A DNA stretch of 34,303 nt, taken from contig RBNJ01000278.1 in NCBI GenBank assembly GCA_003990765.1, positions 1 through 34,303 of the forward strand. The letters run 5' to 3'. This stretch comes from Jimgerdemannia flammicorona (taxonomy: Eukaryota). Positions 1 to 28,619 of the stretch are shown here, one piece after another (within the stretch, counting starts at the first letter, position 1; every line of letters begins with the position of its first letter). Position numbers and translations under genes: made by a program. Below the pieces are notes generated by a model. That model saw nothing but the letters and a program-made list of their open reading frames with translations. It was not told the DNA's origin and searched no databases.

Positions 1-11
1 AAAAAAAAAAA

Positions 12-1900
12 GAGAGCATCTCACTATGATCTTCAAAGAAAATAACAAGGTTAAGAGCATAATGAAAACATATAGGATAAGCTGAATCAGTAAAGGAGAA
101 TTGAGAGAGAGTTATGGAAAAGACAAAGCAAGGACCCAGAGATAAGGCAAAGACTTGAAGAGGAGAAAGGGAGCAGTTAGCTAAAGAAAAAGAAGGAGAC
201 AAAAGAGCTCTAGAAGAAGAATAAACTCAAAAGTTTGGAACTAGTAACTGGGAAAGATGAAGGGGGGACAATATAAGGAACCACTCCAGGTATACCAGAA
301 GTGATGACAGAATCTAAGATGAGATAGGAATACCAAGGAAGAACTATACTAGAGGAAAGTTTAAGAGTAGGAGGCCTTCTTCTTTTCTCTGACTTTTTTT
401 GAAAGTAGTAAGCTTGATGAACAGGAGCACACTCTGTCAGAGTACCAGACCTTATAGCTACAGGCTTTCATCCAGCCCTTGCATTCAGAGGTATGGGTGG
501 AGAAGGTGGAGAAGAAACTGACAGAGGAGGTGGAGAGAGAGTGAGTGATAGAAGGAGCTGTAGGATGAGAGATACTATCATGGAGACAGATGGACTTGGC
601 TAGATATCAGTAGGTACAGTAGAGATGACTGGAGTAGATGGTATATGACCAAGCCCTAGTAGAGTAAGAACTAAGAGTGCAGCCATACTTGAGAGCAAAA
701 GAGACTAAGGAGGAGATCTTGGTAGAGGAGAGTGACTGAGAAGAGATTAATGAAGCCTTGTTTGGCTTAGTGGGGGTCTTGGCAGGGGTCTTGGTGGCAG
801 TAGTGGTGAAGGAGTGAACTTCAGCATAAGTGATAATATAAGCCTTGGTACAAATGGCCTCAGAGATCAAAATCTCAGAGAAGGTAGGCAGGGGAGCAGT
901 GGTGGCAGTGTGAGCTATGGTGACAGTAGTGGCAGTGTGAGCAGTAGTGGCAGTATGAGCAGTGGTGGCAGTATATAACAATTTCTGCTTATGGAGATGA
1001 GTAACAAATAAAGTACTGATGAGGAGGAAATAGTGAATGATATCAATATCAGTGGTAGTGGAGAGAACATTATAGACTTCAAAGCTACAAAAGAGAGTAG
1101 CATCCAGAAGATAAGAGAAGGCAAGGGCTATGAAGAAGGTATAAGTATATTAGAAAGAGGTAGAAGCAACAGTAGCAGTAGCAGTAGCAGTATTAGTGAT
1201 AGCAATCTTGATAGCAATGGAGGCAGCATAAATCTCTTCAGAGAGGGCTTGACAATAAGCCTTAAGGAGAATAGAGTAGCAGATGGTAGGCAGAGCAATG
1301 ATATCAACATCCTAGTAGAGATGAGTCTTCTTAGCAAAGAGGGTAAGAACTAACCAGAACTGAGAGAAGAATAGATAACTAGAAAGATGAAGGTCTAGAG
1401 AGAGAGAGAGGATGGTAGACAAGATATAAGTCTCAAATGAGATAGTGGCAGGAATGAAAGTGAGAGAAGGAGGAGAAGAACCTCATTTATAACTTTGTCA
1501 ATAGAGGTGGAGGTCCTAAGAGCAGATGGTATAGCAGAGGAGAAAGAAGACCCAGTAGGAGCCATGAGAGTGAACCCAGAGTCAGTGTCAAAGTAGATAA
1601 AAGACATATAGAAAGGTATGTATAAGAGGGGTGAATAAAGAATATAACTGAAAATGCATCAACTATTTATTACTATATAAAAGCATAGTCCTTATATACA
1701 ATATATAAGATTCCAAGAGAAAAGACATATCACAACTTGAGATAAACCAAATTAGGAACCACATGATAACTACTGAAGATAAGTAGAGATAAAGAGAGAG
1801 CCAATCCCAGTTGCAGAATAAAAATTACAAACAAATATAAATAAAACAAATCTAAATCAAGATTAAAAAATATCCACAGACTCCAAAGGAGTGAGTGCTT
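12..1900 (-). mobile_element. Degenerate 5' part (5' UTR plus ORF1/gag-like region) of a probable retrotransposon, likely a LINE; runs off or is truncated at the window start
   Basis: CpG-free. A minus-strand ATG at 1565 opens MAPTGSSFSSAIPSALRTSTS, followed by a long S/T/P-rich, stop-riddled coding-like stretch. The ~330 bp upstream is repeated in inverted orientation at ~2001-2372, so it is a repeat family. No RT seen, so the class is inferred. Confidence 0.5.
895..977 (-). repeat. Degenerate 18-bp tandem repeat (agcagtggtggcagtrtg), about 4.5 copies, encoding TATTAH-like units
   Basis: Read directly; ORF 607..981 shows TATTAHTATTAHTATT. Confidence 0.8.
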
Positions 1901-2372
1901 GCTCCAGGGTCTCAGCCTTCACTCTGCTCTCTTCTACTGCTTTTGATCCCTCACTTTACTTGGACTCACTGTGGCTCACTCTATTTTGGCCTCACTCCTT
2001 GCTTATGCTCATCTCTCTGAGGTCTGGAGATGTTTTTTAATCTTGATTTGGATTTGTTTTTTTTGTATTTATTTGTGATTTTTATCCTATAACTGGAATT
2101 GACTCTCTCTTTATCTCTACTTATCTCTAGTGGTCATATGGTTCCTAATTCAGTTTGCCCTAAGTTGTAGTATGTCTTCTCTTTTGAGATCTTATATTTT
2201 ATATATGTATAAAGACTATACTTTTGTATAGCAATAAATGGCTGATGTATTTCCAGTTATATTCTTTATTTATCTCTCTTATATATATCTTTCTATATAT
2301 TTTGTGTCTGCTTTGATACTAACTCTGGGTTCACTCTCATGGCTTCTACTGAGCCTTCTTCCTTCTCTCTTA
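1535..2372. repeat. Long inverted repeat, arms ~1535-1900 and ~2001-2372, ~100 bp spacer
   Basis: gccatgagagtgaacccagagt (1561-) pairs with actctgggttcactctcatggc (2322-2343); aaatcaagattaaaaaa pairs with ttttttaatcttgattt. Mismatches are mostly transitions. Confidence 0.9.
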
Positions 2373-3036
2373 TACTTAATACCCAATATTGGCCAATTCT
2401 CTATATAGTCTATAATATACTGAGATGATACTTTATTAATAATAGTAAAAGAAAGAAGATACTATATTAAAATAAATATATATCAGACATAGTTAGCAGT
2501 ACTAGAAACTGATAAAAAAGAGAAAAAAGCACTAATTTGATACTAATAAAGAGATACATAACTTATCACTATTATCTTTCTCTTACTAATATAGAAAACT
2601 ATACTGAGATAGAGAAATTGTAAGTTAGAAAAAAAAGACTTAGTCAGTTATCTATCAGATCTTATATATCTAGTATAGTAGTAGAGAAAGAAATATGATA
2701 CTTTTGATACTCTTTCTCTATACTTTTTCTTGGTACTTTATACTATCTTACTCTTTTTTATATATCTCTATCTCACTATTCATCAGTTTATTCTAACTAT
2801 ACCTATCAGTTCATTCTGATAATACTCTGCTCTATCCTGCTCTACTCTGCTCTATTCTGTTCCATTCTATTTTCTGATCAGTCTGTAATATCTTCTACTC
2901 TGATTTTTTAGCTCATTTTTGAGTTTCTCTGTCCCTCTGCTTTTTAGTTTTTTTTTGGACTAGTTTTCTAATACTCAGATATCTTTATTAAGCTCTGTAG
3001 TCTCATTCTATACTACTGGGTCCTACTCTGCTAGAA

Positions 3037-3252
3037 GGCTAGTTGAGAGATAACTCTGTCTCTCAATCTACACTATTATATATCTGTTCTCTTTAAATAC
3101 AGACCTCTTATATCTAGTCTTAAACAGATATAACATCTAATATCTAGAGTTCAGAGTTGTAGATTTTCTTACCCTCTTTAAGACTAGTTAAGAGTAGCTC
3201 TGTCTCTTAATCTATACTATCATATATCTGTTCTCTCTAGAGACAAACCTCT
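3037..3252 (+). repeat. ~72-bp direct repeat, two copies 144 bp apart (3037-3108 and 3181-3252), inside eroded TE DNA
   Basis: ctctgtctctcaatctacactattatatatctgttctct versus ctctgtctcttaatctatactatcatatatctgttctct. Confidence 0.8.
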
Positions 3253-3829
3253 TCAGGTATACTGAATCTATAATTAGAGACTTAGCAGTATCAGCTTTTT
3301 ATTATAATATTTAAGATAATTTTAATTAGATATACTCTAATTTGACAATTATTCTCTTCTATTATTAGTATACTCAGTATTATAACTAATAGTTTTACTC
3401 TAGAAGAAAATAATTTCTGTGAAATTTTATTTAAACTATAACTTATACTTACTACTATACTTAGAAAAACTACTATACATAACTAAAGACTATTAACTAA
3501 ACTTATTCTAGCTACTTTATAAAAACAATATAAAGATATTTCTGAATTTTTATATATATATTCTTTATTTAAGAGACTCTGTAAGAAACTTTCTAAAATT
3601 CTGAGCAGTGTGGTTTGAAGGAGCTATAGTACTTTTAGTTTCTGACTAGCTTAGCTTTAACTAGACAATAGATCTATAATTGAATCTAGTAGTTTTTAAT
3701 AGTATATATTATAGATAAATCAGAGCTATCTTTTGGAAACTGTTCTTTTAGATATTATTAATATATAAATATTCAATATTTTTATTACTGGTATTAATTT
3801 TTTAGAGTAGTGAGAAAGATTCTTAAAAG

Positions 3830-4195
3830 TAGTATTCTTAAATAAATTAAATTAATTCAAATCAAATTGAGATCTAATTCAATTCAATTAAATTTAATTT
3901 AATTTATAATATATATTTATCCCAAATTTAAAATATAATAACTTAATAGAAATATATCTAAATTTAATATTCTTTATTATACTAGATTCTCTATTATAAG
4001 ATATATTAAATAAGCTAAAATTCATTAAACTTAGTTATTGAATTTTGAAAAATTAGATTTAAATTAGACTTCAAATTAAATTAAGTCTTAATTTAAATTG
4101 AATTGAATTGAATTGACTCTTAATTTGATTTGAATATTTCAAATTAAATCAAATTGAAGATAAATTTAATTTAATTTAATTTATTCTAAGTATTA
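3830..4195. mobile_element. Non-autonomous hAT-like MITE with TIRs and AATTG/CAATT subterminal repeats
   Basis: Left end tagtattcttaaataaattaaattaa; reverse complement of right end taatacttagaataaattaaattaa. Inner inverted match attcaaatcaaattragrnnnaattcaattcaatt. Flanks cttaaaag (3822-3829) and cttaatag (4196-4203) give a 7/8 match for an 8-bp TSD, the hAT-typical length. Confidence 0.7.
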
Positions 4196-4661
4196 CTTAA
4201 TAGAAGCAGTTAGAGAATTTTTTAGTTTAGTAGTAAGATTGATAGTATTATTTATAGAAGCTAAAAAGTAGATTTGCTCAATTATAGTTTCAAATTTCAG
4301 CCTCAGGAGATTTTAAAGTATAATATATTCCCTGTCTTGATTTTTTAAAAATTTAGTCAATACTTTTTATCCAAGATCTAGCTATAGTTGAATATTGATA
4401 TTTCTGTTAGATCAACTGAAAAAAACAAGCAGAATTAATTTTACATAGTAATACTATTAGAATCTTCATTACTTCTGGTAAGAATTCTAGATTAAATATA
4501 TAACTATATTATTCTAAATATAACTATAGATGAGGTTATTCTTATTATCTAATAGAGAATACTTAAAACTCATATACTATATCTTTCTCTAATACTATTT
4601 GGGTTATATAACCTTTAAAAAGTACTTATAATATCATTTTTGGAGAAAAGAGACTAGCAAT

Positions 4662-6700
4662 ATGGTAACCAACAGACAATCTGAGGTATATACTAGACAG
4701 GGTGGCCTAAGCACATTCAACTGGCAGTATGTAGGAAGAGGCTCTGGTCTGGGGGGGGGGGGTATGGGGGGACTACTAGCTGGTAGATGTGGAAGGGGAG
4801 GAGATAGTGATAGAGGACAGGAGTCTGAGGGGGCAAGCTTTGCAGAGATGGTAAAGGAGAGATAGCAGACATCTGGACTAGAGAGATAGCTGAGGAAAAT
4901 CAAAGAGATGGAGAAGACAGCTGTTCATAAGGAAGTAGTTCTTAGTAGTGGAGACAGTGGAGCTGAGGGTATAGTAGCTGGGGTGAATATGATGGCTAAT
5001 GGTGATAGGACTGTCAATCTGGAAAAAAATCCAGATGTGACTGCTGATGGTGTGGCTGAGCAGTGGGGGCTTAGAGGGCAGGGAGATTTGGCAGATAGTG
5101 TGATGGACCTAGTAGTGGCCCCATTACTCAAAAAATCGATCTTGGTATTCATGATTATACTATACTTCTGGAGCCTAGTAGTGATGGTAAAAATGGTACT
5201 GGGGTTCATTGCTAAGTAGGTGGCTGGAGTAGTATCAGTAAAGTTTCTGAAGGAATTGGAGGAAGTGGAGGTGGGCTTTGAGGAGACTGAGCCTTTGGAG
5301 GAGATACTGAAGGTTAGTTTGATTATTGAGAAGGTATGTATCTCTATGGTATATTATCTGAGATGGGACACCAGGGTAGTACAACTACTGGTGAAAGGAG
5401 TATCTATAGTGATAGCAGTAAAGATGAGAAGGAGAGTTGAGGAGATCATGGTAGAGTATAATGAGGTAGTAGATATCAGATTCAGGGTCTGGGAGGGAAC
5501 CTTACTTAGGACAGAGGATGTTGATATGTAGATTCAGCTGGTAGGGAAGAAAGCTACCAGGAAGATAAGAAACTGGCCTTCAGTGATAGTCTGAGGGACA
5601 ATCTTGTATAAGGTAACAAGGGTAAAGGGGAGTAAGGAGGAGGAGGAGGACTTATTGGAAGTACTGGAAGAGCTGAGTGATATGGTGGAGTGGTAGGTGA
5701 AGGCTTGGAAGGCTTTTGTAGAGTTGACACACTTGAAGATAGTGGATGGGAAGTGAATTTAAGTAGATAAGAGGTAGTGAGAAAGAGCTCAGAGATATAA
5801 GCATTAGAAGGAACTGCTGGCTAAGCTAGAAAGTAGATCACAGAAGGATGCAGGTAGAATGGTAGAGAGGGGGGGTGCCAAAGTGAGTGTCTGGGCCAGC
5901 AAGGATGGCAAGAGTATAGGGAAGGAGATAGGAGAGGACAGGGAAGTGACTGGCAATGATCCATATACTGATGGTATGTTTGAGATCTGGGAGGAGACCT
6001 GGGAGAGATTGCCTACCCCTACTTTTCTTATCAGGAGAGGTCTGACTTCCCAAAGCAGAGTGGTAGAGGATGTGCCAATATGGGGGGCCCAGCAAGTACA
6101 ATTTGGAGTTTCTGAGATAGCAAATGGAAGACAAGTAGTAATGGTTGGAGAGAAGAAATTAGTAGATATCCTAGAGATATGAGATGAGTCTATAAGTACC
6201 AGAGCTGACACCATAATGTTGGATAGAGGGAGGCCAGCAACTCCTGGGGGGAAGGAGGTGGAGAACCTACTTTGAATGTGCAGGATGATGAATAATCTGG
6301 TGGCTGAGGAGTTGGGAGAGGTGGACTTGAGAGTAATGAGTGATGAGCATTGAACATAGATCCTGCAGGAGGATGGGGTGAAGTTGGCATTGAAGGCAGA
6401 AATCCTTGTAGTATATCTGAAGGAGAAAGAATATGAGGTGGATAAGGAGTGGGAAGCAAAGCTGGCAGGTATTTCTGAATACTGCTGGACCAAGCATTAT
6501 GGATTGTAGCTCTGGCAGAAGGCCTGCCTAGAGTATTGAGAGAAGTTTGAGAAGAAGGCAGATGAGAAGATAAATGAGCTATTGGCTGGATTGAAGGCTC
6601 AGAGGACTGAAGAGGAGAAGGTGACTACAGAATATAATCTGAACTTGATACAGAAAGAGATGAATATAGAGCAGTAGAGATAAACTGGATAATACACTAT
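4662..6700 (+). pseudogene. LINE ORF1 remnant (nucleic-acid binding/coiled-coil protein)
   Basis: First ATG 89 bp inside the 5' TSD. Chain of broken plus-strand ORFs (4662, 4908, 5220, 5859) and an E/K-rich coiled-coil-like end at ~6380-6690. Assigned by position upstream of ORF2. Confidence 0.7.
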
Positions 6701-6708
6701 ATTTCATT

Positions 6709-9700
6709 ATGAATAGTACAACTAACATTTTCTCTTTGAACATGAATGGGTTACTGATCACTTCTCAATATAGGAATACTTTTACTTGGCTAAAAGGATT
6801 GGAGGCCAATCTCTTTATCTTACAGGATATCAGATGTGAGGATGATCTGAATAGACTGGAATGGATGAAGGAATGGGGAGATGAGGCAGTTTGGAAGGGC
6901 AAGGTTGGGATTCTGGTCTTGAAAGGCAGAGGGGAGATATGGAACATGAGGAGCTAGAGAGATAGATTGGTCTGGGGAGAGTGGATATGTACAGGTTGGG
7001 AGCTAATCACAGTGGGCTTCTGTTACTGCTCTGCTGTATGGAGTGGGTATGTGGATTGGGTGAAGAGTCTACAGGAGAGTGGGGTTCTTACAGAGACTGG
7101 GGTAGATATACTTGGTGGAGACTTCAATATGGTCTGGGATATACTGATGGATAGAACAGATGGCAGATGGGGAGCTAAAAGTAGGAGTGGAGGGCTGACA
7201 GCATGGGAGGATGTGGAAAGGCTAAGTATTCTAGTAGATACTGGTAGGGAGTATTGGGGGGATAGGAGGATATATACACACTAGGCAGGGGGCCTGGGGA
7301 TGAGGATTGACTAGATGTTGATGGCCAGCTACTGGGGCTTAGATGTTTGAAAGTCACTAGAGGTAGAATGGTGTCCTTGGTCAGATCATTGGGAGCTATT
7401 AGGGCAGGGGCATTTTGGGGGGAGTGGGGATGGGCCTGGACATTAACACCTCAATTTCTCTTTATTAGATGACAGGGTCTGATAGGAGAAATGAGCTGAG
7501 GACATTTAACTAAGGGTGGAGAGCTGGAGGCAAGAAGGTGCCCCAGTTGGTGTTTGGTGGATGAGGATGAAAGAGATGGCCAGAGTCTACTGGAGTGAGG
7601 CAGACAGGGAGGCTGAGAAGTAGAGGAGATGATGGGTGAGATGGGCTTCTGTTAGACTGACTAGACTCTTAGAGGATTGGGCAGGGCTAGTGATAGTGGA
7701 GAGGGGAGAGGACTGGAGATTAATGAGGGTGAAAATAGAGGTTGGAGAATTACAACAGATACTGTGGGATGAGAAAGAGGTAAGGGGGCAGAGCCTGGCA
7801 GTATAGCTTCATTGGCAGGGTTTGGAGGAAGGGAAGAGGCCCTTTAAGTATCTCTCAAAGGCCCTTCAGGTGAGAAGGATACAGCAAAAATAGGAGGGGG
7901 TGCTTAACTCTGATAGTATACTGGTACATGGTATACAAGACATTCTTAGTTCATTAAAGGAGCAATGGAGTGGATTGTAGAGTGAGGAGGAGGGTGGGAC
8001 AGATGCTGCTACTATTGACTATGTATTGGAGAATTAGCACCCTCCACAAGTAGATGGGCTGAGTGACTTGGTATTGCTGATACAAGAGAAAGAGATCCAC
8101 CAGATTCTTGCCACAATAATCTTGGGTACAGCACCTGGGGAGAATGGTCTGCTCTGGGACTTCTGGAAGAAGATAGTGGGGGTCTCAGGAGTACTGAGTA
8201 AGATGATAGCATTGTGTGACTTTATATTACAGATAGGGAGGTGGGTGGGAGAGCAGGATCTGGAGCTGGTGACATTACTTTACAAGAATAAAGAGAGGTA
8301 AGAGGACTGGAAGAACTGGTAGCTGATTATACTACTAGATATGAACAGAAAGTTGGTAACTAAGGTGGTAGTCATAAGGCTACAGAAGGTGGCCCAGCAA
8401 GTCTTGGGTGTTGAGTAGAGGGGCTTTGTAGAAGGCCAGCTCATTAGAGATGACACAGCTTGGGTATATGAAGTTATTGAAGAGGCATAAGCTTGTGGAC
8501 TAGATGGACAACTGGTCTTCCTAGACCAGGAGAAGACTTATGACTGAGTGTGGTGAGTCTGGCTAGTGAAAGTATTGGATAGGACTGAGGTACTGTACCA
8601 GTTCCAGTCAGCAATGATCAGCCTACTAGAAGGGAGTAGGGCTGCACTCATATGTAATAGACATAGAGGGGTATCATTTCCTCTAGATAGGGGTGTACCT
8701 CAGGAGGATCTATTATCCCCCATTCTATATACCCTTTTTCTGGAGTCTCTAATAGATAGAATCAGGAGGAAGATAGTGGGGTTCTCCATCTTTGGGATTG
8801 AGTGGAAAGTTGGGGCCTTTGCTGATGATATGGTGGTTGGTCTGGGGTCTATCACTGATGTTGAGAAGCTCAAGAAGATGGTGGAGTAGTATGAGGAGAA
8901 CTCTGGAACTAAACTTAATTGGTATAAGTATGAAACAATAGTATTGGGCAATGACCTGATGGGAGGAGATATTATTGGAACAATTATCCATATTGGTGAG
9001 GCAGTGTGGTACTTGGGTATTTATTTATCAGTATATGGGTCAGTACTATCTAGACTTTAGTGAGAGTAGAGGGTTGGAATCTGGGGGGAGGCCCTGCAGA
9101 GCTGGGGGGGTTACTAATTGTCTCTAGTAGGGTGTATCTTGATTTTGAACATTTATTGGCTGCTGAAGTTATGATATCTGGCTTACTATCTAGACTTCCC
9201 AGCCTGGGTAGAAGTGATTGATGAAGCTGGCCAAGAGGTGGATCTGGGCTGGAAGAAGGAGTCAGATCAGTTAAGAGGTCTTATCTTTACTAGTGGAAAG
9301 AGGAGGGCTTGGACTGGTTGACTTTCCAAGAAGACTACACTGTTTGAGAGCATGGTGGTTGAAGAGGGCAGTAGAGTTGAGTGGGAGCAGATAGGTCTCC
9401 CTGTTGCAGAAGGTCTGAGAGATGAGGTCCTCATCAAGAGGCTTGACAGAAGATCTCTTATCATTGATTGGGCTTTAGAACACTGCATAATTGCAATATA
9501 AAGGCTTCTGATGGGGAGTAGTAGAGGGGGCACACTGCATTGAAATTCATTGGTAGAGTAATGATGGAGAGATAGCTTGGGACCCAATAATGTAGAGGTG
9601 GGACAGAGTATTGCTGGGAGGCATTCTCTTAATTGAATTCAACATTAGTGATGGGATAGATTGCCAAAGGGGACAAGGTCAGGATCTGTGGCCTAGTGGA

Positions 9701-10330
9701 TAGCAGGGAGTAGATATTAGAGAAGAGTAGAACTAACATGGTATATAGGCCTGAAGTGCTGAGGTGAGGAAATAGATACTGCTGAAGTACTGGGTGGTCT
9801 GGTGGCACATGCTGAGGAGGAATGTTATGCTCAACTTCCACTCAGATCACCTTATCAAGGGGGGTTGCTTCAACTATAAGGAGTGCCACAATATCAGGCA
9901 GGAAGGAGGATATGTGTAGATGTCTGAATATTAGCTAGGGGAGTATAAGGTACTTAGTGACTTTTGGTGGGCTATTGGAGACTGCTTGAAGGTAGTGTGT
10001 AGGAGTGATGGCACATAGAGTCAGTGGGAGGATTTGAGAGATAAACTGGTAGGGGGGATGGGAAAGGAGTAACTTACCTTAGGCTGGGTTTTGGTAATTT
10101 AGATGGAGCTGACCAGTCACTGGCTATTTGTTTTTGAAGATAAGAGGAGACTGGGCTTGGGGGACTGGTTATTGCATTAGTATATGAAAGACATCTTGAT
10201 GGACTGATGGCTTGGTTGGAGGCTGCAAGATAGTTGAAGACATCACTTAGTAGAGAAGATTTATAGGTAGAGTGAGAGAAGAGTGGAAGTAGTGGGTGAG
10301 AAGGTGGTCTTTATTTATGATGATGTAGAG
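6709..10330 (+). pseudogene. LINE ORF2 remnant: APE-type endonuclease (~6709-7400) plus reverse transcriptase (~8060-9030)
   Basis: IFSLNMNGL, LFILQD, ILGGDFN (7114), SDH (7381); APGENGL, NW*LI (=NWRPI, 8314), *RGFVEGQLI (=QxGFxxGRxI, 8416), LDQEKTYD*V (8521), GVPQEDLLSP (8692), AFADD (8815), YLG (9010). Many in-frame stops. 3' end approximate. Confidence 0.93.
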
Positions 10331-10409
10331 AGAGGCTCTCCTATGGGGATCAGGTAGTGGGGGAGATACTGTATACTTATTAATAGACTGATAATAAATA
10401 GTAGCATCT

Positions 10410-10465
<56 letters not shown>

Positions 10466-11172
10466 TACTTAAAACTCAAATGATACAAATTCTGACAAAT
10501 ATTTATAAGGAAGTATTTATATTTTAGTAAGCAGAATTATATAGTAAGACTAGGGCTAGAACTAGGCTTTATATATATATCTACTAATTATATATTATTA
10601 TTTATAGAAAAAATATACTATTATATTACTCTAATAAGTAATTTTAAGATAAAAACTAGATAAGATTGGTATAAAAAATATGAGACAGTGATCATGAAGA
10701 TAGTATTACTCTTCTTTACAACTTTTTGCTAAGTGTGGATACAAACTCTCTTTTTTAGTCTATTCTTTAATAATTTGAAGTTCTTTATTAGTAATCTGAG
10801 AGTCTGACTATAAATAATTCTGCTATAATATCTCAAAAATCTGCTATGAATCTTTCTAGAATTAATAGAGATTAGTTAAGTTAAACTCAGTCCAAAGTAT
10901 ACTTTTGGTTTAGTGGATTTGACTTTGAGTAAGATATTGTCAAAATTAGTAATATATTCTTTGAATACTATATTAGTTTACTAATATATATTGATAAGAA
11001 TATCACTGATTTTACTCTAAATAGTAAAATATAATAAATAATATACTTCAAAGTCTAGTAGCTTATTTTATAATCTTATATGGTTTTGATATATTATTGA
11101 AATCTGATATACATATCTGAGTTTTCACTCTAATCAATCTTACAAATTAACTGTTCTAAGTAATAGTGAGAT

Positions 11173-11709
11173 TAGTGCTCTGAATGAGTCAATTTAAATT
11201 AATTTAAAGTGGCTTATAGATAGTATAATTTGATATATCAACATTATTGTTTTAATTTCCAAATTAGATAATTAAATATTTATATGTATTAATAACTTGA
11301 TAAAAAAATCATCCAATTTTGATAATTATAATATCTTTTGAAAGTTCTTAATATAATCTTTCTAATGATATCAAGAATATTAAAATCAGATAATATATTA
11401 CTGAGTTATTAAGAAAAACATCTATTTTATCAATTTTGAAAATTTCTTTAAAAGAATATTTTTATTGATAACTTGACAATATATTATTCAATTTCAACAT
11501 TCTTAGTATCATTAGAAAGATATCTTTAAGGGCTTTTAAATAATACCATAATCATCAAAATTAGATAATATTTTATCAAGTTATTAATATAAACATTTTA
11601 TTATCTAATTGAAAATTAAAACAATGATATTGATATGTCAAATTTATACTATCTATAAGCTACTTTGAATTGATTAAAATCAATTTAAATTGACTTATTC
11701 AGAGTACTA
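11173..11709. mobile_element. ~537-bp foldback/MITE: near-complete palindrome with ~245-bp arms
   Basis: tagtgctctgaatgagtcaatttaaatt at the left end and aatttaaattgacttattcagagtacta at the right. Internal pairs such as gcttatagatagtataa/ttatactatctataagc and tctttctaatgata/tatcattagaaaga. No TSD recognised. Confidence 0.85.
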
Positions 11710-12842
11710 CTATATATCTTTTATCATATATATTATATTGTCTTCTTTGAGCTTAGAATATTCTTTTGGTAAAGTTATCTTTTATAGACTATGTCTTTGT
11801 CAGTTTTATATATATTAATATATTCTTGAATATAACTAATAAGGTTATATAAATAATTATAAGACTATAGCTTGATTACTATGTTAGAATACTTGAGCTC
11901 TATTGTTATATCTTTTTTACCCTCAGCATTATTACTGTCTTCACTATCTTTATCTTTATTTTTATCTTTACTTTTATCTTCAAGATTAAAGATAAATGTT
12001 GTTTTTACTATTGTTGATGTAGTTGTTATCAAGATTGTAATAGTAAAATGTATAAAATATAAGATTACTAATATATAGATATATATATATACTTTTCAAC
12101 TATTATTACTCTTAAAGTATTAATATAGTTATATATATATACCTTTTGATAGCAAATAACTTATATTAGTTGAAGTACTAATTGTGGTAATCTTTTTTTA
12201 TAATTTTACTATATGTTCTATTTTCTTAGTTAGGGTTTTTTTTTATAGAGACCTCTTTTCTTGGTCCTGGGTTTGATAAATTATAGTGGTGGAGGAAGAG
12301 GTGAAAGATTACTATCATCAGAGAGCTCTTACTGTAGTTTTTTTTACTGTATATTCTGTCTTGATGAGATTCTTCTGATAGAGACCTCACTTTCTCTTAG
12401 AATTGATAGATTGCTATAATAGTAGAGGAAAATCATCATTATCACTGATGGAGATATCAATGTTGAGATCAAGAGAATCATTTCTTTATAAGACAGGTAA
12501 TATTGAATGACTGGGCAACATAGAGGATTCTTTTCTGCTGCTCAGCAGTTTCTGAATGAACTTCATTTAGCAGGTGTGTGGTGAAAAATAAAATCACTTA
12601 ATTAGTATTATTAGTATATACTGTTTTATTCCAACCAATAGCTTTCAGATTACAGGAACCTAAAGTTAATATTTCAAATTTCGCCCCCAAATTTAAAATA
12701 TTTCAAATTTCGGTGATGTCTCCATTATTTTCCCTTAATGTATTGAAAAAATGGGAATGCATCGACATTTTCTAGAAAATACACAAATGTAGCCCAGTCT
12801 CCTAGTGCAAATGGCAGCAGACACAATCTAATTACTTCAGTC

Positions 12843-15800
12843 TCAATATCCGGGAATGTTGGGCAATGCGTCCATGGGTGGAAACCTTCCGTCATTCTGC
12901 ACGTTGGTCAGTGTCCTCGTATCGAGTATGTTATGTTCCGAAATCGTGGACGGACGCAGCGACGACTCCATGCAGGGGCCAACGAGGTTGGAGGGGAAGA
13001 AGCCCCGCCCGCTCTCGCACTCGCCGTACCACCAGCCTGAAGGAGAGGCCCGGAAAACTTCAATCGTCTGTCCCCGCTTGAAGGTAAGGTGGTCCGATTG
13101 ATTCTTAGTTAGATTGTAATCTACCAAAGCCTCAACTACGTCGGGAATATTTTCAAACACTGTATTTAAAAGAGGTTTGGTGTGAGTGGCGATGGATATG
13201 AGATATTGCGGTCGGCTATGATGGAACCTACCATCCGAGAACTGCTTGGCCGGGCCCCACTTCAGGATTTGCTGCTGTTGAGCCTCAATATAATCCCCCT
13301 GATTTTTGTGGGCTGTTTTTCCGTAAGCCTCGATTTCAACATCGTGTGCTATCGTTCGGAGAGGAAGAAAAGAAAAATAACATAAGATATTAGTTTTGTT
13401 GAAACCAATTATAATAAACAATCGAGCGCATATATACCAATGTAGTAAACATAGGGCGGGAACCAGTCCGTCCTGTGCCGCTGCCAATAAACATCGAGAA
13501 GCGGGTGAAGCTCGATATCGGCCACAATTTGTACAAACAGGAGGAGCCAAAGGCGTTGTCCAGATTTGAGAGCTGTGTTGTAGACATTGTTGACTAGGGT
13601 AGTAATTTCGGGAAAGTGCGATTAGTTTGGGGTTTATTCCTCAGAGTCATCAAAATATTCATTAAATGCAAACTCCACACAGCCTTCGCAAAATAAATAG
13701 GGTATGTCTACTCACGAAGGGCGATGAGGACGTTCAAGAACAGGATGTTTGTTACCACGGCAAAGATAACCATCACGCCCATGATGCTGGGGTCCGATTG
13801 GAATCTATGCGCATGTGTTGTAATATATAAGTCAATTAGCCAGGTGACGACAAGCACTGCTCTCTACCCTAACAACTTTTTGTCTCCCGTTCCCACCCGA
13901 AAAAGGTGCAACACGAAATAAACAAATAAACTTACATTGCCATCGTTGCATAGTTTTGGGATGTGAAAAAGAAAACATTACCCAAGACCGTTTTGAAGTC
14001 CTGATAGAAATTATCGCCAGATGGATCGAACGGAAAAGCACTCAAGCTGACATTTTCATTGCCAATGGTGCCATTAATAATGTTAAAAGCCGTGGTATTT
14101 GGGCTGGAATGCTTCAGGTGTTCATAGAAGGCCTGTGCAAAAGCTAAAAAGGCCATCGCAAGCACGATCAGGAAAGGGACCATCTTTTTGATGATCTTTG
14201 CATGCGGATTAAAATCGGATTCATCATTAAAAATAGGTGTCAATTCTTGAAGGAATGATTTCGGTGCAAGTCTGTCAAGTATCATACCTCGCTTATTACG
14301 GCAACAAAGATTCCAATAGGTTTAAAAACACGGAGCAGCATCATCTATAAGAGGAGAAAACTCGAGTTTGTTCTGGGTATTCAAAAACAAAAAACAAAAA
14401 AAGAAAAGAAAATGGGCCAAAAGTACCGCATAGAAACACACTCACCAAGCGAAACCAGACCAGAAGCACACTGGTTGGGCGGAGAAGAATTGGCATGGGG
14501 GCACCAGACACGAGATAAATCACGTATACAATTGGTAGGATGAATGCACCGAGCTCGAAAAGATTGGATAATGTAACAATGTATGCTCGGAAACGATGGT
14601 AGCATTTTAACAACTCCATAACGATGGACACGGCCGCCATCCCACAAACGACCACAGAATACCGTTTCTGCACTTCGGATAGTTGGTTGTCTTTGGGGGC
14701 TTCCGTTTCAAGTAACATTGTGAAGAATGTATAGTAGACAAGATACAATGCGAACATCGCGAAGAACCTCGTGCGAGCGAATGCTCGCCATTTCTAGAAT
14801 AGACAAAGGACGATCTAAGGACCACTGGAACACACTAGGGAGCGCAGCTTGTACGTGTACTTACTTGGTATACAACGGCCTCCAAAACCGGTTCCGCAAT
14901 CTCAACAACTTTTCGCTCAGCCGTTTTTCCGGCAATGCGGGCAAATGTACTCCTTCTAGTTCCTTCGTAGGAGCATAAATTGAGAAAAGGAACGACGCAG
15001 ACATGCGCAGGCCTCAGCCGAGGCTCGAACATTGGAAACCATTTCCTCAACTGCTTCAGTGACAACTCTGCCGAATACTTGAAACACCATCCGAATCCAT
15101 AGAGGAAAGCAGACCACGTATACGAGACGCTGCTGTTGGGGAATTCGACGTGGTTGGCGGGTTGAATAATCGGATATAAGTGGTTGTGGGGTGTCAAAAT
15201 CTCCATGTCGCGGTTTAAAAGACCTTCAGGCGAGCGTTTCTGACACAGAAAAATCGGTTTTTGGACATTGGGAAGGATGCCAACTTGGTAGGATAGAGCT
15301 CGCGCAATTTCTCCAACCAGCGCCGGGTTCTCATCCATCAAGTCTGGAATCTGCTGCTGGAGTAAGAGGCCGTACGCGGTTTCGCCACGTTGGATCTGGC
15401 GGATCATCCATCGAATAATCTTGCCCTCGACTACAGGGTCGCCCACGTAATCGAACAAGGTGTTTGGGATTTTGTCCGATTCGTAAATCCAGGAGAAGAT
15501 GCAACGGCGGTAATTTCGGTAGGTGGCAAAGACAGCATCGAGATCTTGAAAGTTGAAGAGATACAGAATGGGAGAGTGAAACAGGCGAATGTCGATGCGA
15601 GGAAACCGATGCCTTGGGATGTATTCAGCGAGAATCTGAATGATTTGAACCGTGAGGTATGTAAGGTCTTTGGTCTTGTGTGGTGGTGCCCACTTGATTC
15701 TCTTTTCCGTGATCATTCTCGAAAGTAGTAAGAAGTATCGGCAGCCACTGAATGCCTTTTGCTCTTGAGTTGATGTCCCCATGACAATTTCGTGATGTGT

Positions 15801-17635
15801 CTTGAATTCTGGTTGATCACCACTCTTCGGAGTAGTTACGCTCACGAACACTCTCACAGTTGCATTCTCTATGACAGCCTTCGTCTGGAGCTTGTTGATC
15901 GTGTTTGGCTGTTGTGCGCTGAGTCGACCTGGCTTGGGGATGCACCAGAAATCTTGAAGCTGGTAGTCGCATTCAATATTCAGTCGCGACCACAGCTGCA
16001 CGGTCATGACCGTAACGACAAGGACGGCGCCTTCCTTGGTCACTGCAAAATGGCATGGTCCACGGAAAGGCTCATCTTCGATGAACGGCTGAAACGTAAA
16101 ACTTTTCGGTTCACAAACTGGTGGTTTCAACGCACTCGTCACGCAGCAGATATAGAAATACTGATCTTTGTCATCTTCAACTTTCATTAACCAATCAGCG
16201 CCTTCGTAATTTACCCTCCAGTTTTCCTCCGGCTTATCTGGCTTCGATTCAGATGCCGAGATCCCCTCTTCCGCTTGACTTTCATCTGACGGTCCAGGTA
16301 CCAGCGATTTTGTCACGATCCCCCCTTCCGCTCCTTCTGCTTGACTAAGGCAGTAGTGCTTTTGACTGTGGAGCCAACTTTCCTTTGTTTGTTTGACTGG
16401 ATCCTTGAGTAGTGAGCCTGTGTTGACGTCGTAGACATGGATTCCCTCAGAAGCTACGATGATGAGTTTGTCGCCTGCGTCGTGGAAGATTAACTTTTGG
16501 GGTTTTATCTTGGCCTTCCATCGCATAATTTCGAGTCCGGTCTTTGTGAGCAGTATATGCACGGTTATGTATCGACTTCCCAGCACATAGAAATTAGAGT
16601 CGAATTAGTGAAGAAACGGCAAAAACAAAAATCAAAACAAATAATACATAAGAATAAACATAAATTAACAAAATACCTATCGATAACAGTTTTACAAAAG
16701 TTTGAAAGAACAGCGAACCGGGATCCATCGGATGACAGAGCAAAACGGGACCGCCATCGGGAATCCATAGGAGCAATGTTGCGCAACATCAACTCGCGAA
16801 GCTGGTACGAATCCTTGTGAAGCTGCGGGATGGACTGATACATGAGTGATAAGCGGTCCATTTTTCGATGTAGGGCTGTGACATTGTAATCGAGGTCAAG
16901 AGATCGGACGATGTTGCAAATGTCGAAGTATATTGTACGGGTGACGGTAAGATCTGGCAGGTGATACACTCGCAGGTAAGGCGGGCAACAATGGATCATG
17001 CTTTCGCTGCTGAGGAGATTATCATCACCAAAGAAAACGGTGCCGCTGCGCAGTTTGAGTTCCTGTATCTGGCCATCTGTACGTCGCCCTTCCTCGACAC
17101 TTCTGGGATCTTGCGAGGCAGGAGGACGGTTGGTGTCTGTATCGCCAGCGTTACTGAGCTTCCTGACGATGGACACAAAATTGTCTTCCTTACGGGGCGC
17201 AAGCCAGTCACCTTCGGCACACCAACGTTTGTAGGTGTATAGGATTTGGCCATTCATCACCGGCTTGTCGAGATCATCGTAGTCATCATTGTGCGGATTT
17301 TTCCTGGGTATAAATGACACAGCGCAGATGTCTCCCGAGTTGGCCACGGTGACGGACATGTTTACGGGCTCGCCAGTTTGGAGGATTTTGTGAATGTCGA
17401 TTTTTGTCTCGTACATAGCGGCTTTGTTTTCGAGCGTTGTCTGTTTGCCACCGTCGGGGGCCCGCCAGACCCGAACCACAACTTGTCCACCTTTTTGGTT
17501 CAGCGAAGCTACGAAATTGCCATTACTTGACATTTCAATAGACAGGATGTCACCTTCGCTCTGTGGAGGATTCAATATCGTGTCGCTTGACAGGGATTGC
17601 AGTTCGGTGCCGTACTCATTCGAGTCAGTCATCAT
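12843..17635 (-). CDS. TRP-like (transient receptor potential) 6-TM cation channel with long, possibly WD40/beta-propeller-like N-terminus and C-terminal SH3 domain; ~1361 aa, 8 exons
   Basis: Exons (minus): 17635-16677, 16575-14865, 14793-14446, 14344-14288, 14195-13936, 13804-13716, 13593-13438, 13348-12843. All introns are GT-AG with matching phases; total 4086 nt with no internal stop. Motifs: pre-S1 VCVVPFLNLCSY...PVLEAVVYQKWRAFAR, S4-S5 linker LLRVFKPIGIFV, S5 MVPFLIVLAMAFLAFAQAFY, pore FKTVLGNVFFFTSQNY, S6 ILFLNVLIALLNNVY, TRP-helix-like RLWLLLFVQIVADIEL, WQRHRTDWFPPYVYY. Start at the first ATG (MMTDS); the ORF track's 17668 start is TTG. Confidence 0.9.
12981..13139 (-). other. SH3 domain within the last exon of the TRP-like gene
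   Basis: VVEALVDYNLTKNQSDHLTFKRGQTIEVFRASPSGWWYGECESGRGFFPSNLV matches SH3 hallmarks (ALYDY, LxFxxGxxI, GWWxG, GxFPxNYV). Confidence 0.92.
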
Positions 17636-17760
17636 TGAGGTTTGGAGCTTGTTGCGGATACTAGGCAATGGTAGGTTAAGGGTGAGGTGCTGTTCAGCGG
17701 ATACGATACAGCTGAAAGACGTCGAAAGTGGGGCTTTTATTTATCTATTAGGTTGGCCCC

Positions 17761-17763
<3 letters not shown>

Positions 17764-17803
<40 letters not shown>

Positions 17804-17846
17804 CGGGTTTACTTTTTTGCCTTTTTTTTTTTTTTTTTTTTTTTTT
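17764..17846. promoter_or_regulatory. Two poly(dA:dT) tracts (T38 at 17764-17801, T25 at 17822-17846), 130-210 bp upstream of the TRP gene ATG
   Basis: Tracts seen directly. A nucleosome-depleting promoter role is inferred from general fungal knowledge; homopolymer lengths may be affected by sequencing error. Confidence 0.45.
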
Positions 17847-18229
17847 ATCCTTAGTATAGCCGCAGTAACGTTTGCACACTTTGTATTCTGGAACTGGCTC
17901 CATAGATTTTCCAGGCAACGGTTAGATGTCTCAAAGCGCAGAAGTCTTCGCTTTCGAGTGTTCTCTTGCGCAGTTGATTGCCTTAAGCAGCATCCGCAAT
18001 TTCCGCAGTTTGAATTCAAGCGATTTAAGATGCGAATTCTGACATTCTATGCAAACAGAGCTTACGACCCAAGCTGTTTGAAGAATTTCGGTTGCTTCAC
18101 GTCGGACGCTGGAAAATGCTATGACCAATTATACTCCAGAAGTAATACACTCAGCCTAATCCAAAATGTATGAATTGATGTTCCGATCTTAGTATTCGAA
18201 TCGGATCCAGCTCGATCAGGTAATCCGAG

Positions 18230-18420
18230 ACAGAACGACAGAACGGCGATTATAGAACGGCGGAACGATGATTATAGAATGACGAGCAAAGACGAAAAGA
18301 ATCGAGCGCCAATTAAACTATATGCATGGTACCAATCAATCAAATTGCGGTTGATCATGACATTCTATAATCGCCTTGTGGTTAGTATTCATTTTATAAT
18401 CGTCGTTCTGCGGTTAGTAT
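18230..18420. repeat. Small composite inverted repeat: two copies of gaacgrygattatagaa facing two copies of ttytataatcgyc; possible MITE remnant
   Basis: gaacggcgattatagaa and gaacgatgattatagaatg on the left; cattctataatcgcc and cattttataatcgtcgttctg on the right. Confidence 0.6.
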
Positions 18421-18899
18421 AGCCCTAGATCCCGAGATGACGTCTAGCAAAAGACTTTGATTATTACAATCTTAACGTACATATGTTTTTGAAGCTCTTC
18501 TGGAGTATATCGCCTCATACATATAAATAATCAACTAAATAATATTTTTATGAAGCCTTTTTGTCACATCTAGTATATGACTAAGGTCTCCAGATTACCA
18601 AAGGTCAGTGATTGCGGCGCGGAGTATATACAAGGATAAAAAGCACAAAGATTTGAATACATCCCAAAGGAATGTCACAACGACCGATGATTCTGCACAT
18701 GAGTCCAGGATGGCAGCTCCTGTTGCCACCTTAAAGATGGCCGAGGATTGTGACATATCACACCATAGCAGGTACCACAACCACGACCCTATCATTTTTG
18801 AACGAGAGAGGAATGCAGGGATGAAGAAAACAAAGTTTAGAATTAGTCGACTATTCTGTTAGAAATGGAATGATGATAATACGATCGTTAAATAATATT

Positions 18900-20990
18900 T
18901 ACGGTAATTGTTTATCTGAGAGTCACTCGCATTCTCGCTGCCGAGTTTCTTTCCTCCTATGCAGTTTCTTGTGCGATTTGCCGATGTGCGAGTTTCGGGC
19001 TTCGAAAATTATAATCGATTGCTTTTGGACTTACTGCCTATCGGGAGGGTGGCGGAAGAATCAGGCGGGGGCTGGTCGGTGTAGGAGTCCCTTATAAGAG
19101 ACCCGTTCTCGCCCTGGACGCGGTGGTTATGCGTTGTAGAGAATAAGAACGAAGATCGCCCTCGGCGGGGAGAACTCAAGAGCACGGAGAGGGAGATGGG
19201 GATGGGGATGGGATGGGGATGGGGATGGGAATGGGGATGGGGATGGGGATGGGAATGGGGATGGGGATGAGGATGGATGGAATGGATGGCGATGCGGCGA
19301 GTTGAGTAGAGTCGTTGGCATAGACGACGTCTCGCGGAGCCCATTCAAAAGGCGGTTGGGTTGATGTCGGTTGTCGAAACATCAATGGGCGGCTGAATAA
19401 CGATATCGGTTGAAGCCTCGACATGTTGGCTGGTACGGCGGGGGGTGCTGTGCTGTAGTTGAAGGGGTTGAAGGGTGGGTATGGCGAGTGGTGCTGTCGT
19501 TTTTGTAGTCGAAGGGTTGGGAACAGTTAGTAGGTTGGTAAATTATTCCTCTCCCTAATCCCAAAAAAACAAAAGCGCCATGGCAGTGGTTTAGTCCAGG
19601 GTTTCTGGTCCGTTTAGTGACGACGTCCGCCTCCACATTTCCTTATCAAACCTTATCTGCAGATCCCAATTCCCATGGTCCATCACTCCTTCGACGACTG
19701 GCGGTAACCATGTCTGTTCGCTTCTGATTCGTGACATCTTGATAGCAGGATGAGCTACCCCAGTACGTCTACCAATCGTCTCGACCACGGACGTCAACCA
19801 GAATGACGGAAGGTCCAAACGGGTACCTGAACTTTCGGACATAGGTAAGTGCCTCTTACTTGGGTGAAAATGAGTCCCATATAGTGAGGTGCACCAGGAA
19901 TCTTGCCAAAACATTATTTCCGCCACCGCTAGAGGTTTTAGGGAAGGGTTTATTGTTTGGAGAGAGGTTAGCGTCAGTTATTTCGGGTCTGCGTGGTCGT
20001 TGGGTTGACCTTTTTTTCGATATCCATGGTGGTTAACTCAGTATTGACGTCCGTATTGACAGGGATTTCGGGCTCTTGCACACTGACTTCCTCTTCCTCT
20101 TCCTTGGGTGGAGTATGGTTTGCGAACTGTCTCCATGACTAACGAGTGTTCTTGGCTGGGGGGCGGCTGTCCACCTATTGAATGATTGCGTGCTGATCGT
20201 TTCTTCGTCGTCGAAATGTCGTGCAGCTGGTCTTGTCTAGGTCAGCAACCAGTCCCGTATTGACTGATGGCTCCGCTTCTATAGTGAACGCCTGCGTGCC
20301 GACCTCTTCGTCTTCTTCGTCGTCGTCATTCTCTCCGTCCGAGGTATTGCTTGTCCTGCTGTCAAGGCCTCCGCCTATCGTCTCGGCACCTCTACGATGA
20401 TCTCTGATTCCTTGCGCACGATTTTCATGCTATGGGTTTGAAACGGACGGGCATCGTCGTCGGGTAAGCTTTGATACGCGGTGGGATCAGAATTATAGAG
20501 GTAGCCCTGATTAGGCAAACGGTTTGCGCCGGTGACCGGGTTGGGCTCTCGTGTTTGCCGGACAGAGTCTAGCAATATTCCCTTCTTCGCATTCATAGTA
20601 CGGCGGACATTGTCGTTCGTTGCTGTTGTATCTGTTTGTTCATTGCCACGCTTACTGCCTTTCATACTATCTCCGTTATCTCCTCATTGCTAGACACGGG
20701 CATCATTGCCAAGGCGGCCATCGTGATTGGTGTAGTCGTATCGATCGGAATTTGCCCTTGTCCCTGCATCAACGGAGCTGCCAAAGGGCTCGTCGAAAAA
20801 TTCGGCTGCGGCATTGGGTAAGGATTGGCGGGCTGCTGGTGTGCCTTGCTGTCCAAATGCTCGAGCGAAGTGTGGAGACACTGTGGGGACGAACAGGGTT
20901 GGGCGGAAGATTCTTATTTGACCGACGTAGTCCTCCCAGGCCCCTTTGCGCTGCGCATAGGACATGTCGAATCCTTCGTTATTCATCCTG
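18900..20990 (-). pseudogene. Disrupted gene(s) of unknown function in duplication copy A (acidic/low-complexity N-terminal part, His-Pro-rich C-terminal part)
   Basis: Fragmented minus ORFs (20690-21187, 20662-20856, 20375-20665, 19591-19926, 19009-19424) share peptides with copy B (DEEVGTQAFTxEAEPSVNTGLVA, FWQxxWxTSLYG, PTSTQPP, NGLRETSSMP) but switch frames with no clean intron model. Confidence 0.55.
19195..19290. repeat. (GGGGAT)n hexanucleotide microsatellite, encoding His-Pro repeats on the minus strand
   Basis: Seen directly; imperfect, with 5-bp units that shift the frame. Confidence 0.9.
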
Positions 20991-22079
20991 GCGGGTGCAA
21001 TCACATCGATGTGTATTGACAAAAGAGTAAATTGGCTCGCGCGAATGACTGTCCGCAGTGTCAAGCACACCGTCCCAGAGTCCAGAGTACACACAACATA
21101 GTGTTGTAAGCTAAAATATAATCCAATAAAAAAGCACAGAGATATGTGAGAAACTATAAAACCACAGTGGCCAACCAGTTCGGTCACGACTTTCTAAATT
21201 GACTGCATACGTATGTAGTTGTGTGGTGAATATGCGCAGAAGCATCATCGCGTCATTCGTATCCAACTGGGTTGCATAACACATACACATTACTCCTATT
21301 TAAAGATACATCACGCGGTCGCGCAGGAATCAGGAACGGAAGACAGGCTTGTATTCGATGAAGTCCTTTTACATGTTGTCAATGATGGTAATTCTCCTCT
21401 TCGCAAAATGCATATCGTCGCTTTTCGTTCACAGCATTTCCTCTTCCTTAGTTTTAACATTCTAGCACATAATCAGGGACTACTTTATCATCTTTACGCG
21501 GCACAAGTTTGAAATAGACGCTTTGGTATTCAATGGTTGCTGTGATATCGTACAACTTGCATACGGAGCAGGCCAACTTGCTACAGGTTTGACCAATAAA
21601 GCAGAGCCAGGCTCCCTTTTGCTCGTTTCCTCCTGATTTGGTATTTTGTTACTTGTCTTCGGGATTTATGCTGGGGAAACAGGAACTAGTACTGTTTTGT
21701 CAATCTTCAAGATAATAGGACTAATTCAAAGTCTCCAATGCAATGATCGACGTGGGTCGATCAATATGCCATGTGTACATTCCGATTACGATTAGCCGTG
21801 CTATCATGGACTGGGGACGATCGGTGAAACCCATCCTTTCGCGACGTTAGTGGCTTGGATATCAGCTGACGTAACACGTGATTCCGATGTTGTAACTTAG
21901 TATTTTATTTATCAAGCAGCTATAATAAGTGTCTCGGTTGTGCTAAAATAAATAAATAAGAGAACGATGTAAACCTCTTTCATATTTTAAGATCCTTCGG
22001 AATGGCAGAATTGCTACAATTAAAAAACAAATCGCTTGACAATGACAGCTTTTGATGACATATTGTCTACAACAACATT

Positions 22080-27770: not shown

Positions 27771-28619
27771 CGGTAAAAATTGACCGTGGCCACCTAAGTA
27801 TGCTTTCGCCAACATCACGAGAGGCCGAAGAGAGATAGAGTAGTGGACGAAGGTTATTAATTCTCATTTTCGTGCTGCAGTAAGCGATTAAAGGTTTCTA
27901 TAGATTGGCCAAAGAGATTGAATTGGCCCTGATTTCAATGTCGGTTTTGTGCAACTTCTCGTAATTGTGAGACACAGTATTGGTGTAACACACGTTTAGT
28001 TTCGTTTTTGCCCAGATTACTATGAACTACTCATCGGATCCTCTGTGCAAATCCCTCAGCTCCACACACTCGAAGCAAGCGAACGACAATGGCAACCTCT
28101 ACAATCCCGCTGAGTTCTAGGTGTACAGGCGGATGGCGGTGCTGATGGCATGCAGGAGTCGAGAAGGAGGCATGCCGCTGCGAATGCTTCGGCTGCTTCG
28201 CATACGGGATCGATGGAACTCGAGTCGACGACCCCATCGGAGTCATGAAGATTGATGAGTCATATAAGGGGGATTATAATGTGGGTTTGGGGACTTCTAT
28301 ACACAGAGATCTCATTGTATAATAAAGAAGAGGGGAATGCGAGGCGTAATATTTCTACTCCTTGTCGAAAAGTCACTCATCGTCCTCTTTAATATTTGCA
28401 CATAGACCAAATTAATTAGGACACGTTCAACAAATTCTGGGAGGTAGTCGAAAATCATCTCCAAAAGCTCTCCAACCGGCCGTTGCGCAGAGTATTACTC
28501 CACGGCCTCTATACATCCTGCGATAGCTTATTTACGGATCTGCAAATATTGGTCACGGTATGTTTTTGACATTCTTTGGTTTGGTGTAAGTAAAAAAAAA
28601 ACAAAAAACACATCATAAC

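Follow-up and report, generated by a model that had tools for sequence, protein, structure and literature searches.

The loss of CpG dinucleotides restricted to transposable elements (TE), through the deamination of 5-methylcytosine (5mC), is already described in fungi (10.1101/2025.05.29.656941). Here, we analyse a window of 34,303 nucleotides (contig RBNJ01000278.1, positions 1 to 34,303, forward strand, from Jimgerdemannia flammicorona, assembly GCA_003990765.1), in which a long interspersed nuclear element (LINE, positions 4555-10478) lies inside a domain that has lost all its CpGs but one. The LINE carries about 70 stop codons overall, alongside a perfect target-site duplication (TSD) and an unbroken poly(A) tail of 47 residues (A47). 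We argue, with a confidence slightly better than even, that it underwent in situ a deamination-type decay together with the transposon island that contains it, an island which is presumably methylated.

In Austropuccinia psidii, methylation of CpG restricted to TE is followed by deamination, which gives CpG-poor, low-GC transposons while the genes are spared; older insertions have a lower GC content, the indices of repeat-induced point mutation (RIP) are not diagnostic, and C-to-T mutation is regarded as a secondary silencing step (10.1101/2025.05.29.656941). The locus described here is similar in that CpG depletion affects transposon DNA and spares the genes. It is different in that about 16-20% of the non-CpG sites of the LINE have changed too, and in that methylation is presumed here.

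In Pucciniomycotina, fungi without a RID-type gene, transposon copies show a C-to-T bias at CpG, according to two studies (PMC3318451, PMC4352252). Horns et al. (2012) describe a RIP-like TpCpG hypermutation of transposons (PMC3318451), and Amselem et al. (2015) link CpG signatures to Dnmt1 class IIA and find them in only 10-40% of TE copies (PMC4352252). CpG is also the preferred target of C-to-T change in the LINE, which contains one CpG when 231 are expected from its composition, whereas a related metagenome contig, L001, keeps 130. In contrast with the figures of Amselem et al., CpG loss is total here, over a domain of 12.7 kb, which leaves no CpG on which a preference for TpCpG could show.

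Neurospora-type RIP is commonly recognised by a ratio (CpA+TpG)/(ApC+GpT) below about 1.03 and a ratio TpA/ApT above about 0.89. In the LINE, TpA/ApT is indeed above its threshold (0.98-1.00), but (CpA+TpG)/(ApC+GpT) is 1.34-1.36. RIP in Neurospora crassa and other Pezizomycotina is described as indel-free; the LINE resembles it by its C-to-T and G-to-A transitions only, its increased TpA and its many stops. It departs from it in that CpG is hit first rather than CpA, in that no drop is seen in the index based on CpA+TpG (1.34), and in that linked duplicates in the gene region of the window are untouched.

In Zymoseptoria tritici, C-to-T mutation at CpA in transposons is mitotic and depends on Dim2, according to Moller et al. 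2021 (PMC8016269). This decay at non-CpG sites, which depends on methylation and needs no sexual cycle, could plausibly serve as a model for those changes of the LINE that lie outside CpG. However, the process of this ascomycete is CpA-specific, whereas CpG dominates in the LINE.

In vertebrates, APOBEC3 edits the cDNA of retroelements, which results in G-to-A changes and in tryptophan codons turned into stops. G-to-A changes on the sense strand and tryptophan-to-stop codons are also predominant in the LINE, but there the excess of G-to-A reflects a G-rich strand, and both strands as well as the flanks are affected.

Structure and relatives of the LINE

The element (4555-10478) is a non-LTR (long terminal repeat) retrotransposon with a complete coding set of two open reading frames (ORF1 and ORF2), a tail and a TSD. 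The 18-mer GAGAATACTTAAAACTCA has exact matches in the window at 4555 and 10461 only; these are the 5' copy (4555-4572, plus strand) and the 3' copy (10461-10478, plus strand) of the TSD, the latter being preceded by the unbroken A47 (10414-10460, plus strand). The perfect 18-bp duplication and intact tail on which the original prediction relied are thus present. A short, AT-rich 5' untranslated region (UTR) of 89 bp (4573-4661, plus strand) separates the TSD from the ATG of ORF1 at 4662, which is the counterpart of the ORF1 start of L001. The LINE may be truncated inside its 5' UTR, since L001 has at least 202 bp upstream of its ORF1.

ORF1 (4662-6686, plus strand, 675 codons) has 19 in-frame stops; the Pfam scan found no known domain in it, and L001 ORF1 aligns to it as a single tblastn segment (4716-6668, frame 3, 37% identity). 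The first frame of ORF2 (6709-9205, plus strand) has 27 stops in 832 codons and also aligns to its L001 counterpart as one segment (6709-9000, frame 1, 53% identity); the many stops announced beforehand are there. The reverse transcriptase (about 8308-8943, plus strand) is recognised by Pfam RVT_1 on residues 534-745 of ORF2 (E 2.7e-18, stops being read as X). The APE endonuclease (about 6730-7341, plus strand) is below the Pfam threshold in the LINE itself, and is identified from the alignment with L001 ORF2, which starts at residue 1 (53% identity); the L001 protein has both Exo_endo_phos (E 1.3e-14) and RVT_1. The element has these features of an APE-type LINE: reverse transcriptase domain, N-terminal APE endonuclease, poly(A) and TSD. 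The C-terminal part of ORF2 (9206-10330, plus strand) is in a shifted frame and has 25 stops in 375 codons; homology supports it only up to 9445, and a Pfam scan of 9205-10331 in all three frames gave no match. Rfam and tRNA scans gave no match and no tRNA, respectively.

The nine ORF2 motifs listed at the outset are all in one frame, as had been stated, their positions being congruent modulo 3 with 6709. The statement that the element had decayed without indels is correct insofar as indels are few, but one frameshift exists: 44 of 152 homologous proteins extend over 9206-9445 in the +1 frame, the third frame being used by none of them, from which we conclude that there is one +1 frameshift near 9205-9225 (plus strand), the sole frame-breaking indel detected. 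The homologous segments in the second frame start at 9206-9239, with a median end of the first frame at 9150 and a median start of the second at 9224. The frameshift is downstream of all nine motifs. It is important to note that the indel count applies to 4716-9445, homology support for the frame stopping at 9445.

A word-based protein search with ORF2 (stops as X) gave no match, and a full HMMER search returned 10,070 proteins (E up to 0.001). These include distant full-length LINE ORF2 proteins that are about 25% identical; a homolog of 25% identity is from Closterium, and a handful of short metagenome fragments are 46-64% identical to the LINE ORF2. One of these fragments, P0153, led to L001, a metagenome contig of 4,546 bp whose ORF1 is intact (671 aa, no known domain) and whose ORF2 is open over 766 codons to the contig end, at the counterpart of position 9012 of the window. 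An Atlas search with the L001 ORF2 retrieved generic APE-RT clusters only.

L001 and the LINE differ at 43% of aligned bases (978 transitions, 855 transversions); judging from this divergence, L001 is a member of a different subfamily. L001 contains 39% G and 15% C, with a CpG observed/expected ratio of 0.5 (130 CpGs in 4.5 kb), and the LINE contains 32% G and 12% C, with a GC skew of +0.35 to +0.53 along the element. Going by these compositions, the strong excess of G over C is a trait of the family and not damage, since the intact L001 has it too. We discarded the idea of an editing of the sense strand only, which the skew had raised, for the same reason: this family is G-rich by nature.

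Mutation spectrum

Raw counts against L001 mix the divergence of the lineages with decay, so the spectrum was scored at sites whose ancestral state is safe. The first set consists of tryptophan codons. Among 56 aligned TGG codons of L001, the LINE has 36 TGG, 8 TAG, 7 TGA and 1 TAA; the remaining four differ at two bases or more, and there is no other single-base change. This amounts to 17 G-to-A events in 104 G sites (16%).

The second set consists of conserved non-arginine codons. At their positions 1 and 2, 25 of 128 G/C sites show a change from GC to AT and 2 of 128 another change, when only 6 of 136 A/T sites have changed (Fisher p = 1.8e-4). The C-to-T rate on the sense strand (12/45, 27%) is not significantly different from the G-to-A rate (13/83, 16%; p = 0.16): both strands are affected. 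Since the sense strand is natively G-rich, G-to-A is nevertheless the commonest sense-strand change. As to the residues themselves, L001 and at least 50% of 129 distant homologs share a conserved residue in 143 columns; the LINE has this residue in 116 of them and departs from it in 27, and all 14 differences at columns that are at least 80% conserved are explicable by C-to-T or G-to-A alone (arginine being taken as CGN). Conserved residues of the catalytic region are among those lost. With so few transversions and indels, the directed C-to-T spectrum that had been predicted is borne out.

A third comparison was made with P0153, P0006 and P0003, which are closer relatives that do not overlap (691 codons, 375 of them identical; unambiguous single-base changes counted). 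It gives 89 G-to-A, 16 A-to-G, 22 C-to-T and 6 T-to-C changes, and 58 transversions, which probably correspond to subfamily divergence.

Regarding the stops, 38 could be aligned to L001: 16 face TGG, 4 glutamine, 9 arginine, and 9 variable residues. The nine that face arginine would fit double hits at CpG, provided the ancestral codon was CGR. When the three closer proteins are used instead of L001, tryptophan stands opposite 12 of the 21 stops that align. Most of the aligned stops result from G-to-A on the sense strand at tryptophan codons, rather than from C-to-T at glutamine or arginine codons. Two stops had been singled out as non-CpG changes. The TAG at 8416 is indeed one (L001 has CAG), but the TAG at 8320 is not: L001 has CGC at this position, which makes it a CpG double hit.

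Two other explanations of the stops and substitutions were examined and rejected. A variant genetic code does not account for stops that face tryptophan (16), glutamine (4), arginine (9) and nine other residues, nor for the changes at invariant residues. ADAR-like A-to-G editing is inconsistent with 16 A-to-G against 89 G-to-A.

At the level of dinucleotides, the comparison of L001 with the LINE shows CpG going from 125 to 1, TpA/ApT from 0.52 to 0.98, and (CpA+TpG)/(ApC+GpT) from 1.57 to 1.36. Together with the 16-20% of other G/C sites that have changed, this agrees with the sequence of events initially suggested, CpG first and then a spill-over to non-CpG sites.

Extent of the CpG loss

The CpG-free domain covers 1-12681, where one CpG (5137-5138) is observed and about 368 are expected. 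The left flank of the LINE (1-4554) has none when 110 are expected, and the right flank (10479-12681) none when 28 are expected. The original prediction, which mentioned a single CpG at 5137, was therefore right about the LINE, but the loss is regional and no property of the element alone. On the contrary, the gene regions are near expectation: 686 CpGs versus 670 in 12682-25500, and 338 versus 303 in 28000-34000. AT-rich DNA beside the genes (25501-27999) has 11 CpGs for 21 expected. As in islands that decay through 5mC, the CpGs of the transposon domain are gone and those of the adjacent genes are spared.

The edge of the domain is sharp (window 12600-12720): there is no CpG in 5138-12681, and then 16 in about 320 bp. 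The position 12682 would be the end of the presumed methylated island. The GC content is 54% in L001, 45% in the LINE and about 23% in the flanks, an order that we take to be one of increasing age.

Repeats as internal controls

An independent inverted repeat lies in the CpG-free domain at 1529-2375. Neither of its arms (1529-1881 and 2022-2375, 82% identical) contains a CpG, and their 350 aligned bases show 53 transitions as against 5 transversions, plus 2 gap events. A short direct repeat (3035-3109/3180-3253) shows 9 transitions and 1 transversion. Transversions are more frequent in two AT-rich palindromes of the domain. The first (11173-11709, arms 77% identical) has 34 transitions for 12 transversions, along with 6 gap events; the second, which is more AT-rich (3855-4135, arms 70% identical), has 17 transitions and 30 transversions, 22 of which are A/T exchanges. 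Such a dominance of A/T transversions would be expected once cytosines are exhausted.

Four pairs of paralogs in the gene region (0.4-1.3 kb, 69-76% identical, CpG observed/expected near 1) served as controls. Their transition/transversion ratios are 2.59, 2.36, 2.61 and 1.16, and they have 28, 8, 10 and 5 gap events, that is, one gap event per 5-18 substitutions. The clean sites of the LINE have about 2 non-transitions in 44, compared to 146 in 452 in the controls (306 transitions, 146 transversions; binomial p = 8e-6), the two clean-site sets behind n = 44 sharing one tryptophan codon.

The contexts of the changes also differ. In the repeats of the domain, C/T differences concern 65% of CpA, 60% of CpC and 21% of CpT (p = 1.7e-10), whereas in the gene-region controls they are flat across contexts (19-26%). 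The value for CpA is too high, since it also counts ancient CpGs whose decay took different paths in the two arms. In the LINE, sense-strand G after A looks spared (0/14) and sense-strand CpT is changed (8/29); the analysis of context against L001 is too noisy at 43% divergence.

Origin of the decay

The explanation that we favour is deamination in situ, and it would run as follows. A member of a family that is natively G-rich and C-poor would have been inserted into a transposon island that was already AT-rich, and, once there, would have been ruined in its double-stranded form by the deamination of cytosines on both strands. All CpGs but one would have become TpG, CpA or TpA, and about one in six of the non-CpG C/G (16-20%) T or A; A/T sites, at most about 4% of which changed, would have been left almost untouched, like the poly(A), the TSD and the length of the element. 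The likeliest driver would be the methylation of cytosines in the island, and not in the neighbouring genes, followed by the deamination of 5mC. A longer exposure to the same regime would yield the flanks, at about 23% GC. The flanks look like the end state, because the ratio of G/C to A/T change would give an equilibrium at about the 14-23% GC of the oldest parts of the domain. The analysis shows the mutation spectrum, its symmetry between strands, its regional extent and the contrast with the genes, from which we infer the methylation, the enzyme or enzymes and the tempo; it may be that the non-CpG share of the changes leaves room for an enzyme-driven component, RIP-like or Dim2-like.

Several observations weigh against this explanation. 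The change of 16-20% of non-CpG sites means that CpG methylation alone is insufficient. The repeats of the domain and the LINE appear to conflict regarding the preferred non-CpG context. With L001 at 43% divergence, ancestral states can be trusted at conserved sites only. Last, one copy cannot separate slow decay from a burst. The rapid burst of the original prediction is not shown: the tail has no cytosine, the TSD has five G/C positions and no CpG, and their integrity says little. The caveat attached to that prediction, that tail and TSD offer few targets, was therefore justified.

A possible, if rather unlikely, alternative is a RIP-like premeiotic hypermutation triggered by homology, which would deaminate repeats within very few sexual cycles, or even a single one, preferring CpG and spilling over to other sites. 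It would account for a spectrum that consists of transitions only and is nearly free of indels, for the rise of TpA/ApT from 0.52 to 0.98, for the 53 transitions versus 5 transversions in the inverted-repeat arms and, unlike CpG methylation, for the change of about 1/6 of the non-CpG sites; TpCpG and CpG signatures are moreover reported in Pucciniomycotina (PMC3318451, PMC4352252). However, the four paralog pairs of the gene region have a CpG ratio near 1 and a transition/transversion ratio of 1.2-2.6, and although selection may mask an effect, they keep their CpGs, which implies that duplication alone did not trigger the process. Conversely, the CpG loss extends over AT-rich flanks without a recognisable repeat. 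These two observations make us favour the targeting of a domain over a trigger by homology. The (CpA+TpG)/(ApC+GpT) ratio (1.34-1.36) is also above the 1.03 cut-off of Neurospora-type RIP, and a runs test detected no strand-wise clustering of G-to-A and C-to-T changes (93 runs versus 90.4 expected, in noisy data).

Targeting of a domain by a dedicated system is a further idea, which we consider doubtful: a deaminating defence that is independent of homology, in a non-pezizomycete host, would hit all CpGs and about 1/6 of the other cytosines on both strands, too fast for A/T changes or indels to accumulate, and with a non-CpG context unlike that of Neurospora RIP.

Neutral ageing under a strong genome-wide mutation bias from GC to AT, with no dedicated process, seems quite improbable to us. 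The rates of change at G/C (about 16-20%) and A/T sites (at most 4%) do match the equilibrium GC of the oldest flank (14-23%), the A tract has no cytosine target, and other long homopolymers survive in the window, such as those at 17761-17835. But with the share of non-transitions found in the controls, the ratio of about 2/44 in the LINE has a probability of 8e-6; there is one frameshift for hundreds of substitutions, when the controls have one gap per 5-18 substitutions; and AT-rich DNA by the genes (25501-27999) retains some CpGs, 11 when 21 are expected.

We give even less credit to the hypothesis that the element was dead on arrival, the transcript of a decayed copy having been mobilised in trans, so that TSD and tail are young and the damage is inherited. 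It would account for about 70 stops in an element whose TSD is perfect and whose A47 is pure, but an intact TSD (five G/C positions, no CpG) and tail (no G/C) are also expected under C-to-T decay in situ, because they offer few or no G/C targets, and, judging by the flanks, the site of insertion is itself subject to complete CpG loss.

Editing at retrotransposition, either APOBEC-like on first-strand cDNA or C-to-U or A-to-I on RNA, is scarcely plausible, since the GC skew (+0.35 to +0.53) and the prevalence of G-to-A on the sense strand that would suggest it go with a skew that is native (G 39%, C 15% in L001), with C-to-T and G-to-A rates that give no significant strand asymmetry (27% and 16%, p = 0.16), with fewer A-to-G than G-to-A changes (16 and 89), and with a signature that is shared by the flanks and by the separate inverted repeat.

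Other features of the window

The DNA at 1-1528, 5' of the inverted repeat, is purine-rich and CpG-free. The whole of 1-2375, which has neither a recognisable coding frame nor a match to a family, is probably another decayed mobile element. On the other side, the right edge of the CpG-free domain adjoins the 3' side of an ORF with an SH3 domain (12843-13640, minus strand; SH3_1, E 1.4e-11).

The gene region contains paralogous segments with many indels and normal CpG: 13302-15167 is related to 22300-23538, and 18467-20918 to 29366-32071. The copy at 22.3-23.5 kb, which has fragmentary ORFs only, may be a pseudogene. Low-complexity repeats resembling His-Pro and Gly-Asp dipeptides occur in both paralogous blocks (19127-19344 and 30126-30306). 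A large gene on the minus strand (14835-17740) consists of two long ORFs (589 and 391 codons) on either side of an intron about 100 nt long, whose GT...AG borders and CTAAT-like branch site are compatible with a fungal host without proving it. Pfam recognises no domain in this gene, for which a set of 5.8 billion proteins contains only 2 relatives. A neighbouring ORF of 583 aa has only 2 relatives, and an Atlas search with a neighbouring ORF gave no usable match. Long T homopolymers (17761-17835), in a region that resembles an ORF (poly-Phe), show that long homopolymers persist outside the LINE tail.

Significance

The LINE is a clean example of a transposon killed by nothing but base changes: it has about 70 stops and has lost conserved residues, yet its tail and TSD are intact, and so is its frame apart from one shift. 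The window is its own control, since paralogs of genes located a few kilobases away have an ordinary spectrum. The excess of G over C is a trap in such analyses: it mimics the editing of a single strand, yet it belongs to the family. As the intact L001 indicates, possibly active members of this family exist or existed until lately. If the host proved to be outside the groups known for this kind of decay, the changes at non-CpG sites would merit a study of genome defence; and if the LINE was indeed the target of a domain-directed deaminating defence, such a RIP-like system would be new to the literature, and its host might be an early-diverging fungus.

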